DNA from: Escherichia phage ST0
DNA: 64,000 nt
Sequence record: MF044457
Direction: 5' to 3' (one strand)
The stretch's first letter is position 1. The number at the start of each line of letters is the position of its first letter. Positions 1 to 54,755 of the stretch are shown here, piece after piece. Made by a program: the position numbers and the translations under genes. The notes under the pieces are model-generated. The model was given only the letters and a program-made list of their open reading frames with translations, ran no database searches and was not told where the DNA came from.

Positions 1-113
1 ACTACACTGTTCTCCTTGAGAAGACATTTATTAAACCACTTGAAGGATTCACATCAGCAGCGAAACTCGATTACGAGAAGAAAGCATCTCTGTTCGATAT
101 GTTCGATTTTTGA
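1..113 (+). CDS. 43: 3' end of DNA polymerase (gene 43), partial
   Basis: Frame ending TGA at 111-113 translates ...KPLEGFTSAAKLDYEKKASLFDMFDF*; the tail matches the sliding-clamp-binding C-terminal peptide I recall for RB69 polymerase. Position upstream of the 42/uvsX block fits T4 synteny. Confidence 0.6.
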   Translation, partial: YTVLLEKTFIKPLEGFTSAAKLDYEKKASLFDMFDF

Positions 114-153
114 TATAATGACATGGACGGTAAACTAATTAAATGAGAGAAAT

Positions 154-789
154 ATGAAAACTACTCCTATTACTATCGCTATTGACGCAATCATAAAACA
201 AGCTTCTTCTTTGGCCGCTATGGCCAAAGTAATTAGTCAAAACCCTGCTCGTTATAATGCTATTCTAGAAACTCTTCGACGCCCAGGACTTAGTAATTAT
301 GAAAGCCGAGTAATTATTACAGGTGTTGGTAAGAATGCTAATATTGCAACTAAAGCTTCTGAGACATTTGCTTCACTCGGTATCCCGAGTATGTACTTGA
401 ACACCGGGCATTATTCTCACGGTGATGCAGGATTCATTGCGCCTAATGATGTGTTGATTCATATTAGTCGTTCTGGTAAAACTGAAGAAATGATAGGCGT
501 GGCTAAGCATCTTAAAATGATTCGTCCGAACGTCAAACAGATTCTGTTGCATTGTAACCCAGACATTCCACAAGAAAATGAAGCCCTTTTTGATTACTCT
601 TTCTGTACAGGCATCGCAGTAGAGGTTGATGAGAATTCTCTGGCTCCGACCATGTCCACTACATTGTTGTTAGCGCTTATCGATACTTTTGCTATCAACC
701 TTTCGTCTGAGCGTGGATTTACCTCTAATGACTTCCTTAAGTTCCACCCTGGTGGTGCACTAGGTGCCATGTTACGAGGCGAACAATGA
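154..789 (+). CDS. SIS-domain sugar-phosphate isomerase, KdsD/GutQ-like arabinose-5-phosphate isomerase without CBS domains
   Basis: ORF track 211 aa. Motifs typical of the KdsD/KpsF SIS domain: GVGKNANIATK, SHGDAGFI, ISRSGKT, APTMSTT, FHPGGALG. RBS GAGAG upstream. Confidence 0.8.
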   Translation: MKTTPITIAIDAIIKQASSLAAMAKVISQNPARYNAILETLRRPGLSNYESRVIITGVGKNANIATKASETFASLGIPSMYLNTGHYSHGDAGFIAPNDVLIHISRSGKTEEMIGVAKHLKMIRPNVKQILLHCNPDIPQENEALFDYSFCTGIAVEVDENSLAPTMSTTLLLALIDTFAINLSSERGFTSNDFLKFHPGGALGAMLRGEQ

Positions 790-929
790 AAGCAATAACA
801 ATAGGACTTTTACTATTGATGCTTATCATGACTATCTACTGGAGCTTAACGGCTCCGGTAATGATTCCGACTCTTATAATCGGATGGATTATGATTGGAC
901 TACAAGCAAAGTATGAATGCTTTAACTAG
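786..929 (+). CDS. small hydrophobic protein, 47 aa, below ORF-track size cutoff
   Basis: ATG at 786 overlaps the stop of the preceding gene (ATGA). Translation MKAITIGLLLLMLIMTIYWSLTAPVMIPTLIIGWIMIGLQAKYECFN is almost entirely hydrophobic. Confidence 0.35.
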   Translation: MKAITIGLLLLMLIMTIYWSLTAPVMIPTLIIGWIMIGLQAKYECFN

Positions 930-970
930 AATAGTGTACAATACTCCTACTTACCAATGAGGACCACAAT

Positions 971-2656
971 ATGAAAAAAGCTGTTATTCTTGGTGCTGGA
1001 CTGGCAACTCGTTTGTATCCAATAACGCATCATATTCCTAAGGTGCTTGTTAACTATAAACAAGACACTATTCTGAGCAATTTGTATACAATTTATTCTG
1101 ACCTTGGTGCAGACGAAATTATTGTAGTAGTTCATTCAAAATTTGCTGAAACTGTTCGAGCTTATTGTGAGCAAGAAGGGTTCAATGTGACTATTCGTAC
1201 AGTTGATGAAGCATATGGTTCTGCTTATGCTCTTGCTAAATTGCACAAAGATTTAGACGGCCATAATGTAATTGTTAACTGGTGTGATATTATTCCCGAT
1301 TTTGGTTCATGGTCTTGGAATGTTAACGCAATCTATGTTAAGGGTGACGAATGTCGATATAATTTCGACGGTGAAAATATCACTAACGTAGGTTCAACAG
1401 GTGGTAATGTTGTAGGAATTTATCAGTTCAAAGACTGGGAATTCTATATGGGTTCTACTGATGAGGAAATTCATGAATACTGCAAAGGACGTGATTTCGT
1501 AGAATTCCTTTACGGCAGCGCATTCAATAAATCAGAGCTTATGAATCTAATTGATTTAGGTGATATGCCTAAACTTGAAAAAGCTCATGAAGTTCGTGAA
1601 CTTAATCGTAGTTTTAATGCAGTTGAAATCGGTGAAGAAACTGTAACTAAATTCGCATTAACCGAACAGGGCCGAGCTCTTCAGAAAGATGAGATTTCAT
1701 GGTATCTTAAAGTGAAATCAGATTCAGTTCCTCAGTTAGTTTCTGTTAATGAAAATAACTTTGAAATGGAACGCATTAAAGGTAAGCCAGCATTTGAATA
1801 TATTAAATCCAAATCGAGTCTTGCTCGTCCACAAATTGTTGATGCAATTTTAGATGCACTGAAATTCAGCACAGACACTTATTTTGTAAGTCCTGAAACT
1901 GTTCGCCGTGATTTCACTAAAGAGTTCTATACGAAAGTTATTGATCGTTGTGAAAGTATTCAACCATTGATTGATTCATTCGGTAAAATCACACATGTGA
2001 ACTACACTAAGATTGGACGTCTGAAGCCAATGTTGAAACAAGCTTTAGAACACCTTATTCGTTATCATAACCGTTCTCAGGGACAGTACTCTGTTATTCA
2101 TGGTGACCCGAACTTCAGTAATACTATGATTACTGATAATGGTGAAGTCAAGTTTATCGACCCTCGTGGATATTTTGGTGAAACCAAGATTTACGGGCCA
2201 AAATTGTATGATGAAGCTAAAGTGCTTTATGCTGTTTCAGGTTATGATGAATTCAACGCTAATCCGACCTGGGGGCAATTTACTATTGATGAAACAACTT
2301 GTAATGTGACTATTAACATCAATCCATTAGTTTACAAATATGGAAAGATGAGTTCGTTTAACGAGTATCATCATTTGGCAGTTGCAATTATCTGGATTGC
2401 ATTAGGCGGTTATTTCAAGAATAATCCACTTAAAGCGGTAGCCGCATATTATAAAGGTATGGAACTTCTGACTAAGCAATTACGCAACATGGGCCGTGTA
2501 CTTCAGGACGGCTCTATTAGTTATGACGTAGCAGAACCTGTAACGGCTACTCTGATTACAAAAAATCCTGGTAAATGGGTACTAACTGATAAAGAAACTG
2601 GTGTTTCCTATCGTCCAATCGGTGGCGATATCACTCATCAATGGGAACGAATCTAA
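971..2656 (+). CDS. bifunctional sugar-1-phosphate nucleotidyltransferase (N-terminal) / sugar kinase of the choline-kinase/APH fold (C-terminal)
   Basis: ORF track 561 aa. N-terminus ILGAGLATRL is the G-x-G-x-R loop of LicC/RmlA-type nucleotidyltransferases. C-terminal half has HGDPNFSNTMI and FIDPRG, resembling the catalytic loop and DFG-like motif of LicA/APH kinases. RBS GAGGA. Confidence 0.8.
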   Translation: MKKAVILGAGLATRLYPITHHIPKVLVNYKQDTILSNLYTIYSDLGADEIIVVVHSKFAETVRAYCEQEGFNVTIRTVDEAYGSAYALAKLHKDLDGHNVIVNWCDIIPDFGSWSWNVNAIYVKGDECRYNFDGENITNVGSTGGNVVGIYQFKDWEFYMGSTDEEIHEYCKGRDFVEFLYGSAFNKSELMNLIDLGDMPKLEKAHEVRELNRSFNAVEIGEETVTKFALTEQGRALQKDEISWYLKVKSDSVPQLVSVNENNFEMERIKGKPAFEYIKSKSSLARPQIVDAILDALKFSTDTYFVSPETVRRDFTKEFYTKVIDRCESIQPLIDSFGKITHVNYTKIGRLKPMLKQALEHLIRYHNRSQGQYSVIHGDPNFSNTMITDNGEVKFIDPRGYFGETKIYGPKLYDEAKVLYAVSGYDEFNANPTWGQFTIDETTCNVTININPLVYKYGKMSSFNEYHHLAVAIIWIALGGYFKNNPLKAVAAYYKGMELLTKQLRNMGRVLQDGSISYDVAEPVTATLITKNPGKWVLTDKETGVSYRPIGGDITHQWERI

Positions 2657-3042
2657 TGCACCGTGTAGAAAACATGCTTAATCTTTGTTTTGATGTCGAT
2701 GATTGTATAACAGAGTGGAATAACAATCGTGATTACGTGAACTTCAAACCAGACGTCGAAATGGTGTCTGCCATTAATGCCCTGTATGATGCAGGGCATA
2801 CCATAACGCTTTACACTGCTCGCGGTATGAAGTCAGTAGGCCCTGGTCGTATAGCAATTGACATTCTCCCAAGTCTGATTCAGAACTTGGCAAACATTGG
2901 ATTGAAGTACCATAATTTGCTAACACATAAACCAGTATATGATTGGATTATCGACGACAAAGCTATGCGTCCTGACGAATTCAAAGCTCTTATGAATAAA
3001 GGCGAATTCGAAACATTTAAATCATATAAACCGAATCTATAA
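2656..3042 (+). CDS. HAD-superfamily phosphatase-like protein
   Basis: ORF track 2641..3042; start moved to ATG at 2656 overlapping the upstream stop (TAATG). Motif I-like FDVDDC near the N-terminus, T in LYTAR, K in THKP, IIDDK motif IV-like. Confidence 0.6.
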   Translation: MHRVENMLNLCFDVDDCITEWNNNRDYVNFKPDVEMVSAINALYDAGHTITLYTARGMKSVGPGRIAIDILPSLIQNLANIGLKYHNLLTHKPVYDWIIDDKAMRPDEFKALMNKGEFETFKSYKPNL

Positions 3043-3096
3043 TAATTTAAGTAAGACCTGCAAAAACCATCGCAACAATTAACGCGAGATGCAAAA

Positions 3097-4257
3097 ATGA
3101 ATACCTTTAAAATCGGAACGAATTTTGATTTAGCTCTTCTTGATAAAATCGTAGAGCTCAATAAAACTTATCCTAATAGCTTGATAAACGAAGTATACGG
3201 CTCTACAAGAGAAATGGCTTTTGTAGCAGCCAGACCTGATTTTAGGCTTCCTGACGTTGACAAAAAGATGTTAGAAGATTACGTTAAACGTTGTAACGAA
3301 TTAGGTATTTGCTTTAACTATACACTCAACACGATAAATCCTGGTTCAAAAAGAGAACTAGTTGAGTGGAAGAAGAAAGCTATTCAGGATTATGTTCAGT
3401 ATCTTTGGTCAATAGGCGTATGGCGTATTACTATCGCTAACCCTGTTGTTATGGAAATTGTTCGTGAAGTCAATAAAGACATTGAGATTGAAGTTTCAAC
3501 AATTCTACATGTCGATGCTGTAACTCAAATCAAATACTTGCATGACCAATATAATATCAAAAAGGTCTGCTGCGGAATTCATAAGAACCGTTCAGTTTCT
3601 TTCCTGAAGCGTGCAGCAGAGTTTTGTAATAAGAACAATATAATATTTGAAGTTCTTGTAAATGAGTTCTGTTCTAATGCTGGTAAAGGGTATACAACAC
3701 ATTGTAGTTATCGTGACTCTTGCTATATTTTCCATAGCACCGATGTTACAGTAGATGATGCCAAATCTTTAAATGGATATCCAATGCAACATTGTATTAA
3801 AGCTCGTGATACAGATCCATTTAACTGGTTGAGAACTCGTTTTGTTCGTCCTCAAGATTTGAAACTTTATAATGATATTGGTATCACTCAATTCAAAGTT
3901 TCAGGACGTACAGGTAGCACAGACTACATTTTGAAAGTTCTTGAAGCTTATGCTTCTGAAAAGTTTGAAGGTAATTTGTTGGAATTGTGGAAGCCTTTAG
4001 AGACCATTTTCACTCTTGAAAATGAGACTGAGTTTTCACATACGGTAAATATTGAAACCTCTTTGTTAGATGGCTTTTTAGAAAAAAGGTGGTTCAGACA
4101 TCCAGATTTCGATTGTGCTAATGAAATCTGCGGGACGACGTGTACATATTGTGAAAGATATTATAAACGTCAATTATCTAAAAACGGGTTAGCAGAAAAC
4201 TCTATATCTATTATTGATATAACTAACTCTGATGACGCTTTGAGGTACCCGGAATGA
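3097..4257 (+). CDS. Cys-rich protein with U32-family-like signature, function unknown
   Basis: ORF track 386 aa. EVLVNEFCSNAGKGYTTHCSYRDSC resembles the U32 family signature (E-x-F-x2-G-x-x-C...C-x-x-S); C-terminal CANEICGTTCTYC cluster. Confidence 0.55.
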   Translation: MNTFKIGTNFDLALLDKIVELNKTYPNSLINEVYGSTREMAFVAARPDFRLPDVDKKMLEDYVKRCNELGICFNYTLNTINPGSKRELVEWKKKAIQDYVQYLWSIGVWRITIANPVVMEIVREVNKDIEIEVSTILHVDAVTQIKYLHDQYNIKKVCCGIHKNRSVSFLKRAAEFCNKNNIIFEVLVNEFCSNAGKGYTTHCSYRDSCYIFHSTDVTVDDAKSLNGYPMQHCIKARDTDPFNWLRTRFVRPQDLKLYNDIGITQFKVSGRTGSTDYILKVLEAYASEKFEGNLLELWKPLETIFTLENETEFSHTVNIETSLLDGFLEKRWFRHPDFDCANEICGTTCTYCERYYKRQLSKNGLAENSISIIDITNSDDALRYPE

Positions 4258-4397
4258 TTTCTAGAAAAACTTTTAACCACCAACTTAACGAAGAGATTTT
4301 GACTATGAAAATTAACAGCAACGAACAAATTCTTAAAAAGGCCCTAATGGGCCTGTTTGAAACTAAAGCGGCTAAAGTGATTAAAGAACCTGTTTAA
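4254..4397 (+). CDS. small ORF, 47 aa, below ORF-track cutoff
   Basis: ATG overlaps the stop of the preceding gene (ATGA); translation MISRKTFNHQLNEEILTMKINSNEQILKKALMGLFETKAAKVIKEPV. Confidence 0.25.
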   Translation: MISRKTFNHQLNEEILTMKINSNEQILKKALMGLFETKAAKVIKEPV

Positions 4398-11057: not shown

Positions 11058-11426
11058 ATGAAAAAATTAATCGCTTTAACAATGATATTTGGATTAACCG
11101 GATGTGGTGCCCATGGCTTTATCCCTAATAACGTTGGCCAACTGATTTACAATCCGAATGTTAAACAGTATGACCAACCTAAAGTTGAAGTGGAAGACCC
11201 GGTTACTGTAGGTAATCGAATGGTTCAAGCTGATGCCCATGCTCAACGTTATCGTGACTCTGATACTGTAGCATTGCCAAAAGAACAACGCGTTAAAGAA
11301 CATTGTCTACAGGCTACTGAAATCGCATTCATTCGCTATGTTGAAACAACCGGTAAAGAGCCCACCCAGAAACAAATCGCAAATAACTACGTCCAGTGTA
11401 TTGAACGTTTAAACAAATTTAACTAA
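11058..11426 (+). CDS. putative lipoprotein
   Basis: 122 aa; signal peptide MKKLIALTMIFGLTGC with lipobox LTGC. Confidence 0.6.
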   Translation: MKKLIALTMIFGLTGCGAHGFIPNNVGQLIYNPNVKQYDQPKVEVEDPVTVGNRMVQADAHAQRYRDSDTVALPKEQRVKEHCLQATEIAFIRYVETTGKEPTQKQIANNYVQCIERLNKFN

Positions 11427-11429
11427 TTG

Positions 11430-11459
11430 GTTTACACCAAAGTTAAAATAAGATATTAT
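11430..11459 (+). promoter_or_regulatory. early promoter
   Basis: GTTTAC, about 18 bp, TATTAT. Confidence 0.5.
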
Positions 11460-11487
11460 AAACATAACAAATCAAGAGGAAATTAAC

Positions 11488-11736
11488 ATGGAATTATTCG
11501 TAGCTAGTTCAGTAGCGGTTTTAATCGCAGGTATTGGTTCAATCATCATTTACATGTTGCCTTGGGTAATCGCACTTATTCGTGGCACAAAAAGCACAAC
11601 AGCAATCTTCTTTGTATCTTTACTCTTTAACTGGACGATGGTTGGTTGGATTGGAACTTTAATTTGGTCTATCGTTGCCGAAAAGAAATCTGCTCAGCAG
11701 CCTCAACAAGTAATTATTATTCGCGAAAAAGAATAA
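11488..11736 (+). CDS. small integral membrane protein (two predicted TM helices)
   Basis: 82 aa; two long hydrophobic segments; RBS AGAGGA. Confidence 0.6.
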   Translation: MELFVASSVAVLIAGIGSIIIYMLPWVIALIRGTKSTTAIFFVSLLFNWTMVGWIGTLIWSIVAEKKSAQQPQQVIIIREKE

Positions 11737-11740
11737 ACTT

Positions 11741-11770
11741 GTTTACATTATAGATGGACTATAGTATAGT
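11741..11770 (+). promoter_or_regulatory. early promoter
   Basis: GTTTAC, about 18 bp, TATAGT, then TAGTCCTATCA extension. Confidence 0.55.
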
Positions 11771-11799
11771 AGTCCTATCAAATCAACTAAGGAGTTAAA

Positions 11800-12093
11800 A
11801 TGAAAAAGTTATCATTGGCAGCAATCTTACTCGCAGTATCATGTGCACCAGCTCCAGTTACGGCAGGTTATGATAAAGACCTCTGTGAGTGGTCAATGAC
11901 TGCAAATCAAGAAGATGTTGAACAACAAATCTTCTCTGATATCATGAACATCACTAAACGAGACCGTCCTAATATGGTTAATAAAGTTGTTGAACAACTT
12001 AAGTCTGGCGGTATCATGCAGTACAATTATGTTTTGTATTGTGACCCTAATTTCGATAACAAAGATATCGTAACCGAAATCACAGGTGAATAA
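11800..12093 (+). CDS. secreted periplasmic protein, possibly spackle (Sp)-like
   Basis: 97 aa with N-terminal signal peptide MKKLSLAAILLAVSCAPAPVTA; size and signal peptide match T4 Sp (97 aa precursor). Sequence match is from vague recall only. Confidence 0.55.
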   Translation: MKKLSLAAILLAVSCAPAPVTAGYDKDLCEWSMTANQEDVEQQIFSDIMNITKRDRPNMVNKVVEQLKSGGIMQYNYVLYCDPNFDNKDIVTEITGE

Positions 12094-33760: not shown

Positions 33761-34064
33761 TGAGGTAATTAAAATGGTAGCATGGATTATTGCATTGCTG
33801 TGTTGGTCGTTTTTATTCGTTAACACTTTAGTTACAGGCGAAACAACAGTATTTCAACAGGCTGTGTCACAAGGTACCTTAGCGGTCTTAGCTCTTCTTA
33901 ACGTATTAAAAGGCGAGCAATGATTAAGAAAATCTTAGCAGGAGCCTTCGGGCTCTTGTTTTTGCTTACGGTTCTGTACTACGGTGTGATGTTTGGGCTA
34001 ATCCAAGTAGTGCTTTTCATTTCAGATGTTATAATGGTTATTCGTTCATTAATATGGTGAAAAT

Positions 34065-53898: not shown

Positions 53899-54755
53899 AA
53901 CAATACCAATACCTGATTAAAGATATCTTAGAAAATGGCTACGAAACAGACGACCGTACAGGTACCGGCACTATTGCCCTGTTCGGAACTAAATTGCGAT
54001 GGGATCTGACTAAAGGATTCCCTGCGGTAACAACTAAGAAATTAGCATGGAAAGCTTGTATTGCCGAGTTACTGTGGTTCATGTCTGGTTCTACCAATGT
54101 TAATGATTTGCGTATTCGTACTCATGGTAGTCTTATTCAAGGTAAAACTATTTGGGACGACAACTATGAAAATCAGGCAAAAGACCTTGGGTATCATAGC
54201 GGCGAACTTGGTCCTATTTATGGTAAGCAATGGCGTGATTTTGGTGGTGTAGACCAATTAGTTGAAACAATCGACCGTATTAAAAAATTACCAACTGATC
54301 GTCGTCAAATTGTTTCTGCCTGGAATCCAGCTGAAATAAATCAAATGGCTCTTCCTCCTTGCCATATGTTCTATCAGTTCAATGTGCGTAATGGTCATCT
54401 TGATTTACAATGGTATCAACGCAGTGTAGATGTTTTCTTGGGTCTGCCGTTCAACATTGCCTCGTACGCTGCCTTGACGCATATTGTAGCGAAGATGTGT
54501 AACCTTATCCCAGGTGATTTAGTGTTCTCAGGCGGCAACACGCATATCTACAGCAATCATGTAGAACAATGCAAAGAAGTTCTTCGTCGTGAACCTAAAG
54601 AGTTATGTTCTCTTGAAATTAATTGGCCTAGTAATTTTGAGAATTGGCCTACAAAAATCCAAATGGACTGGGTTACTGGAACGATGACATATTCTGATTT
54701 CGTTCTTAAAAATTACGAATCACATCCAGCTATCAAAGCTAAAATGGCGGTATAA
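53895..54755 (+). CDS. td: Td thymidylate synthase, uninterrupted
   Basis: 286 aa in one frame; MKQYQYLIKDILENGYETDDRTGTGTIALFG and catalytic PPCHMFYQFNV match T4 Td. Confidence 0.95.
   Translation: MKQYQYLIKDILENGYETDDRTGTGTIALFGTKLRWDLTKGFPAVTTKKLAWKACIAELLWFMSGSTNVNDLRIRTHGSLIQGKTIWDDNYENQAKDLGYHSGELGPIYGKQWRDFGGVDQLVETIDRIKKLPTDRRQIVSAWNPAEINQMALPPCHMFYQFNVRNGHLDLQWYQRSVDVFLGLPFNIASYAALTHIVAKMCNLIPGDLVFSGGNTHIYSNHVEQCKEVLRREPKELCSLEINWPSNFENWPTKIQMDWVTGTMTYSDFVLKNYESHPAIKAKMAV

Follow-up and report, generated by a model that had tools for sequence, protein, structure and literature searches.

The window, a stretch of 64,000 nucleotides from Escherichia phage ST0 (MF044457) that was analysed as a whole, is RB69-like T4-type phage DNA (Mosigvirus), and its first 4.4 kb is matched over at least 80% of the length by 151 phage records, the best of them at 98.6% identity. 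Close to the beginning of the window a small open reading frame (ORF) lies between an isomerase gene and a nucleotidyltransferase/kinase gene. The features to which we refer below are the following:

154 to 789, plus strand: arabinose-5-phosphate isomerase (API) gene (SIS domain; RB69 gp55), upstream of the small ORF and coupled to it
776 to 779, plus strand: GAGG, Shine-Dalgarno-like, 6 nt 5' of the ATG of the small ORF
786 to 789, plus strand: ATGA start/stop overlap with the isomerase gene, putative termination-reinitiation coupling site, kept in 12 of 12 diverged orthologs
786 to 929, plus strand: small ORF of the Y02C family, with predicted helices at residues 2-22 and 24-42 and a C-terminal Q-x-K-[YF]-x-C-[FI]-[NW] tail
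918 to 942, plus strand: putative T4-type middle promoter TGCTTTA-N12-TACAAT (motif match; MotA box 918-924, TACAAT 937-942)
971 to 2656, plus strand: bifunctional nucleotidyltransferase/kinase gene (AfhE-like; RB69 gp52:53) of the UDP-arabinose pathway, downstream of the small ORF
11488 to 11736, plus strand: imm gene (82 aa), used as comparator, 64% identical to T4 Imm (Pfam Imm_superinfect, E 1.8e-15)

The small ORF encodes the 47-residue protein MKAITIGLLLLMLIMTIYWSLTAPVMIPTLIIGWIMIGLQAKYECFN, and its ATG (786-788) overlaps with the TGA (787-789) that terminates the SIS-domain isomerase gene. An earlier note on this DNA, made from the letters alone, had described a hydrophobic 47-aa ORF with an ATGA start at the isomerase gene, and the coordinates, the overlap and the hydrophobic character (GRAVY 1.37) were all confirmed. 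By hydropathy it ranks third among the 84 ATG-initiated ORFs of 40-60 aa that the six frames of the window contain. Given this number of ORFs of similar size its length by itself is unremarkable, and it is conservation, not length, that raises it above chance.

Conservation in related phages, which the same note had named as a check, is indeed found: the reading frame and the ATGA start are kept in all 12 diverged orthologs compared, and orthologs occur in seven genera of Tevenvirinae. Across these 12 sequences nucleotide identity by codon position is 0.605, 0.752 and 0.418, so that second positions are better conserved than first and first better than third, and amino-acid identity is 0.517 in frame compared with 0.31 and 0.28 in the other frames. 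Synonymous sites show saturation in comparisons between genera, with a pS of 0.6-1.0 against a pN of 0.2-0.45, and dN/dS is about 0.1-0.25 where dS can be calculated. Eight residues are invariant in 21 aligned database sequences (M1, Y18, P24, M26, W34, Q40, K42 and C45), the invariant cysteine being encoded by both TGT and TGC. Judged by these comparisons, the ORF is a real gene under purifying selection at the protein level. A scan of positions 600-1100 against Rfam supported no structured RNA, its one match being a chance lncRNA hit far under threshold. Our literature search returned no paper on the ORF or naming Y02C or PF26865, neither Ribo-seq nor proteomic support for the T4 ORF, and nothing that shows directly that the ORF is translated or has a phenotype.

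Profile searches assign the protein to a family that exists in public databases. It matches phrog_3610 with an E value of 4.6e-27, residues 1-47 aligning to profile positions 1-47, and in a collection of 5.8 billion proteins 20 of 20 clusters, one of them containing the identical sequence, consist of phage proteins of 45-49 aa with precomputed PF26865, a model named Phage_T4_Y02C. An HMM built from diverged Y02C members scores the ORF at 91.9 bits. The match to PF26865/phrog_3610 is full-length and extends to the 47-aa size, the two helices and the P-x-M-I-P-T ... W ... Q-x-K-[YF]-x-C pattern as well as to synteny, as the ORF lies downstream of gene 43 with its start overlapping the stop of the preceding gene. 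With the other members of the family it shares the length (45-50 aa), two hydrophobic segments, the Q-x-K-Y-x-C motif and the ATGA start. A copy of Pfam-A older than the PF26865 model gave no match for the ORF, and weak Pfam matches to RSN1_7TM and Peptidase_S26 (E 0.13-0.27) were discarded as hydrophobic noise. When 1.84 billion cluster representatives were searched with the HMM, only three real clusters were recovered, none of them beyond T4-like phages; a fourth match, P0022 (481 aa, nine stretches), was rejected as a translated DNA repeat. On the strength of these profile matches, the ORF is a member of an already catalogued, uncharacterised family of T4-like phages.

The annotation of this family is uneven. 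The ortholog is left out of the RefSeq records of T4 and T6, of M37159 and of CIP9 and phiR1-RT, and to this extent the description of the ORF as unannotated in the earlier note applies to its relatives; it does not apply to Escherichia phage ST0, in which the identical protein is annotated (YP_009608354.1), or to most Mosigvirus records, which list it as a hypothetical protein. UniProt names the T4 ortholog 'Uncharacterized 5.6 kDa protein in Gp42-imm intergenic region'. The equivalents in RB69 (ORF054c, NC_004928 29826-29966) and JS98 (orf44, 2956-3093) are both annotated as 36-aa proteins with a truncated start. Since the ATGA-overlapping start is conserved in the diverged orthologs, the sequences indicate that these annotated starts are internal methionines and that the proteins are 47 and 45 aa long, respectively.

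AlphaFold2, supplied with an alignment of 21 sequences, predicts a two-helix hairpin with helices at residues 2-22 and 24-42 (mean pLDDT 87.8). Hydropathy analysis agrees with this prediction, as Kyte-Doolittle windows of 19 residues reach values up to 2.19 and both segments exceed the usual hydropathy threshold; of the one or two transmembrane helices that the earlier note had anticipated, the model thus favours two. The product of the ORF is therefore predicted to be a tight hairpin, best read as an inner-membrane microprotein. Applying the positive-inside rule to Lys2 (Lys2 and Lys4 in T4) and Lys42, both ends are probably cytoplasmic, which would put the proline-rich turn T-x-P-x-M-I-P-T on the periplasmic side of the inner membrane. 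In helix 1 only hydrophobicity is conserved while the sequence varies, and this helix could be an anchor that stays in place or a signal peptide that is cleaved off. The turn, helix 2 (I-x-G-W) and the C-terminal tail hold most of the sequence conservation, and for this reason these are likely to be the functional parts. A Foldseek search with the predicted fold returned nothing in the PDB and only the PM2 ortholog in BFVD. Bacteria and phages have microproteins with one or two membrane helices, for example AcrZ and MgrB of E. coli, that work by attaching to larger proteins of the membrane. The ORF product resembles proteins of this type in being shorter than 50 aa, nearly all transmembrane and without a catalytic domain, with conserved juxtamembrane residues, but no sequence or fold match to the class was found and the analogy is one of kind only.

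In order to place the ORF among the T4-like phages we examined its orthologs and their neighbours. A tblastn search matched the ORF in 770 phage records, of which 152 are full-length at 90% identity or more and 584 cover residues 18-47 at 60-80% identity. Orthologs were retrieved from Mosig-, Tequatro-, Dhaka-, Kanagawa-, Winkler-, Teguna- and Mosugukvirus as well as from metagenomic contigs. The T4 ortholog is a 49-aa ORF on the minus strand (NC_000866 26376..26227; MKSKIIAALLLILMIIISIYYSVTVPLMIPTIILGWSLLLLQVKYECIN), which takes up the 'intergenic' space separating imm from gene 42 and whose ATG overlaps the imm stop, again as ATGA. The orthologs of T6 and JS98 overlap the imm stop in the same way, and the ORF is found directly 3' of imm in T4, T6 and JS98, at loci L039/L040 and at locus L041. 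In T4 and T6, in Dhakavirus and in some relatives from metagenomes, in other words, the ORF follows imm and is coupled to it, and in the window the isomerase gene takes this place. T4 and the window also differ on the 3' side, where the gap to the next gene is 7 nt in T4 and 41 nt, with a middle-promoter-like motif, in the window. The gene orders are as follows:

T4: 43 - imm.1 - imm - ORF - 42
JS98 and L039: 43 - imm - ORF - lipoprotein - AfhE
L041: 43 - imm - ORF - lipoprotein - API - AfhE
L038: 43 - imm - lipoprotein - API - ORF - AfhE
Window: 43 - API - ORF - AfhE

The position between genes 43 and 42, where T4 has imm, had been pointed out in the earlier note and is borne out by these orders. 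No such ORF adjoins gene 43 in Karam-, Jiaoda-, Krisch- or Slopekvirus or in Citrobacter phage Ursula, and in Jiaodavirus and Ursula imm abuts gene 42 with no Y02C ORF between them. Going by this distribution, the Y02C ORF is accessory and confined to part of the Tevenvirinae. In 10 of the 11 phages in which it was translated, the gene directly 3' of gene 43 codes for a lipoprotein (lipobox L-[TS/A]-G-C); in JS98 the lipoprotein gene (orf43) is found behind imm and the Y02C ORF. V-G-Q-V-R ... G-T-G-x-V-Y is common to many of these lipoproteins, and only the T4/T6 type matches DUF5481.

We consider it likely that the ORF encodes a translationally coupled membrane-hairpin microprotein of the Y02C family, most likely with an accessory role in the envelope. 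Its identity, its coding status and its membrane-hairpin nature are well supported; a specific role in the envelope or in immunity is a tentative proposal. As the ORF has no enzyme-like domain, binding of another membrane protein appears the most likely mode of action, and Y02C would bind such a partner from the phage or from the host. Its most likely role would be to help modify the envelope of the infected cell (for example in superinfection exclusion or at the DNA-entry site) and not to take part in nucleotide or sugar chemistry. What suggests an envelope role is gene order only, namely the frequent coupling to imm and the lipoprotein gene next to gene 43, the ancestral neighbours being the envelope-directed imm.1-type lipoprotein and imm, and a functional link to immunity is possible only by way of the coupling to imm. 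In Mosigvirus, including the window phage, imm and imm.1 now lie 10.6 kb away beside spackle while the ORF stayed behind, which weakens the case for an obligatory partnership with Imm. That Jiaodavirus and Ursula possess imm but no such ORF likewise argues that Imm works without Y02C. A distinctive C-terminal tail of Imm in Y02C-bearing phages was considered and rejected, as Q-x-I-I-I-x-E is also present in Jiaodavirus and Ursula.

A bolder version of the envelope proposal, which we regard as rather unlikely, is that the envelope and superinfection-exclusion apparatus of T-even phages has a third membrane component that has been overlooked, Y02C, which would act together with Imm, Imm.1 or Sp at the site of DNA entry. 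If this were true, Y02C would be co-translated with Imm in T4, classical imm insertion mutants would possibly be polar on Y02C, and part of the 'Imm' phenotype might belong to the 5.6-kDa protein. The relocated genes form a cluster at 11058-12093 on the plus strand of the window, consisting of an imm.1-type lipoprotein gene (DUF5481, 11058-11426), imm (11488-11736) and spackle (11800-12093), so that the two T4 superinfection-exclusion genes imm and spackle are joined in one cluster here, unlike in T4.

The protein might instead be directed at the host and unrelated to Imm, perturbing the membrane potential or inhibiting a host transporter, protease or signal peptidase. Its size and hydrophobicity are typical of small membrane regulators, its patchy distribution resembles that of an accessory gene, its production would be early, and its persistence in place when imm moved in Mosigvirus also fits such an effector. 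However, nothing points to a particular host target, and neither the cluster representatives searched, with their three real clusters confined to Tevenvirinae, nor the PDB and BFVD, where its own ortholog was the sole structural match, offer a relative whose function might carry over. We therefore judge a host-directed effector to be possible but unlikely, and retain the coupled membrane microprotein of the Y02C family as the preferred reading.

The start of the Y02C ORF overlaps the preceding stop by four nucleotides (ATGA) or by one, and the overlap is seen in the 12 diverged orthologs independently of whether the upstream gene is imm or API. Shine-Dalgarno sequences, by comparison, are good in T4 and the window, weak or absent in several orthologs and lacking in JS98, which makes the coupling, and not the Shine-Dalgarno sequence, the conserved feature of initiation. 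Since the start always lies on the overlap with the upstream stop, we infer that the ORF would be made from an early or prereplicative transcript by termination-reinitiation. A scan of positions 1-1200 for sigma-70 and terminator consensus sequences gave nothing above shuffled sequence. At window positions 111-119 (plus strand), TGATATAAT is an extended -10 type sequence lying across the stop codon of gene 43, 35 nt upstream of the isomerase ATG, and by consensus match it is a candidate early promoter for the pair of isomerase and small ORF.

Middle-promoter signals overlap the ORF as well. The MotA box has been described as (a/t)(a/t)(a/t)TGCTTtA, located 12 +/- 1 bp from the -10 element (PMC2988021). 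In the window the motif fits this rule: its MotA box, TGCTTTA (918-924), spans the Cys-Phe-Asn codons of the ORF and it continues past the stop of the ORF, so that a middle start is predicted near 949, before the Shine-Dalgarno sequence and ATG (971) of the AfhE-like gene; the same arrangement is kept at the orthologous loci of Kanagawa-, Winkler- and Tegunavirus. The pattern TGCTTYA-N11-13-TANNNT occurs 13 times in the window compared with 1.85 expected, and none of 100 shuffles reached 13. In T4 and T6, TGCTTTT-N12-TATAAT begins 25 nt into the Y02C ortholog, and the start predicted from it for T4, 26320, agrees exactly with the mapped start of the T4 middle promoter P42 (PMC2988021), which lies inside the ortholog, 56 nt after its ATG. 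Transcripts from P42 thus lack the beginning of the T4 ORF, whose product can come only from the longer early transcripts.

These signals raise the question of whether the peptide has a function of its own, or whether the ORF is kept merely as a translational relay or by the overlapping DNA signals of middle promoters. Such an explanation would account for the invariant ATGA coupling, for the MotA-type motif over the final codons in the window, for the mapped P42 start inside the T4 ortholog and for the TGA of the ORF in T4, T6 and JS98, which sits within the TGAGG Shine-Dalgarno sequence of the next gene. Yet a relay ORF needs no particular sequence, and here eight residues are invariant in the 21 aligned sequences, third codon positions are the most variable, dN/dS is low and the length stays within 45-50 aa. 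The promoter motifs, moreover, do not keep one place in the ORF from lineage to lineage, and JS98 and PM2 lack them but retain the protein motif; because their positions shift or vanish, and because the invariant cysteine uses both TGT and TGC, promoter signals cannot explain the conservation of the protein. We hold it to be improbable that the peptide is without function.

A further question is the relation of the ORF to the arabinose DNA-modification pathway in whose genes it is embedded. The flanking genes are UDP-arabinose/arabinosyl-5-hydroxycytosine genes, to all of which functions have been assigned, each step of the pathway being given to soluble enzymes, and gp54 is never mentioned (PMC13326640). 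Besides the isomerase (RB69 gp55) and the AfhE-like nucleotidyltransferase/kinase (gp52:53), the window encodes a HAD phosphatase (gp51), a U32-like protein (gp50), a 5-hydroxy-dCMP synthase (gp48) and an arabinosyltransferase (gp46:47). A second 47-aa ORF, hydrophilic and matching phrog_8601 (RB69 gp49), is located at 4254-4397 on the plus strand; its ATG, too, overlaps the preceding stop as ATGA, here that of the U32-like gene (3097-4257), and RB69 gp49 is given no role in the published papers on the pathway. The RB69 module has been described as eight genes without T4 homologs (PMC6024577), a statement that, by our comparison, does not hold for ORF054c, because T4 itself carries an ortholog of the ORF.

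Across phages we did not find the ORF to co-occur with the Afh / RB69 gp45-55 pathway genes. Y02C is present without arabinose genes in the glucosyl-hmC phages T4 and T6 and in hundreds of Tequatrovirus records, and is absent from Acinetobacter phages Acj61, PhaR5 and Ac42, Marfavirus PWKp18 and Morganella phage Rgz1 despite their isomerase and/or AfhE-like genes. A literature search that did not reach the primary Afh papers found no data on DNA modification from a knockout of the ORF. As far as gene content tells, the ORF is not a required part of the pathway. This bears directly on the suggestion in the earlier note that the protein is a membrane anchor for the pathway, that is, a scaffold tethering the isomerase, the AfhE-like enzyme or the glycosyltransferases via its short cytoplasmic tail. 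The location of the ORF between the isomerase and AfhE-like genes in five genera, its translational coupling to the isomerase gene and the conserved C-terminal tail with its invariant cysteine would all suit an anchor. Against these observations stand the orthologs of T4, T6 and Tequatrovirus, located between imm and gene 42 where there is no arabinose gene to serve, the five pathway-bearing phages that lack the ORF, the order at L041, where the ORF follows imm and the isomerase gene comes further downstream, and a published pathway of soluble enzymes that does not invoke gp54. Taken together, this renders an anchor for the arabinose enzymes very improbable, and diagrams of the arabinose pathway should leave the ORF out.

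The comparison with Imm, lastly, shows similarity in kind and separation in descent. T4 Imm, too, is a small and very hydrophobic protein of the inner membrane, encoded in the early region between genes 43 and 42, and imm is often directly upstream of the Y02C ORF and translationally coupled to it, but Imm is about 70-90 aa long and belongs to an unrelated family. Imm reportedly has a demonstrated exclusion phenotype. The idea that the ORF is itself an immunity protein of the Imm type, a short homolog of T4 Imm or a substitute for it, had been raised in the earlier note on account of its small size, hydrophobicity and position, and finds a short local resemblance (TLIIGW vs TMIGW, tblastn E 7.9), but it can be dismissed as extremely improbable, because the ORF has no match to Pfam Imm_superinfect (PF14373) at E up to 10, hhalign gives the Y02C and Imm profiles a probability of 1.5%, tblastn with T4 and JS98 Imm as queries finds the bona fide imm at 11488-11736 of the same window (E 3.6e-31) and not the ORF, and T4, T6, JS98, L038, L039 and L041 have genes for both proteins, adjacent or a short distance apart, in T4 with the ortholog directly downstream of imm.

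For the coupled membrane microprotein that we favour, the public databases already hold the gene as an uncharacterised family, and its recognition here changes little in that respect. Y02C is nevertheless among the few membrane proteins of less than 50 aa that are conserved across many T-even genera and always made by stop-start coupling, and as a conserved microprotein present in T4 itself it is a cheap and well-defined genetic target in that phage. Two small ORFs of the window are more hydrophobic still, one at 33920 (plus strand, 46 aa) and one at 54097 (plus strand, 51 aa), with GRAVY values of 1.84 and 1.69, respectively, and these are possibly further small membrane proteins.
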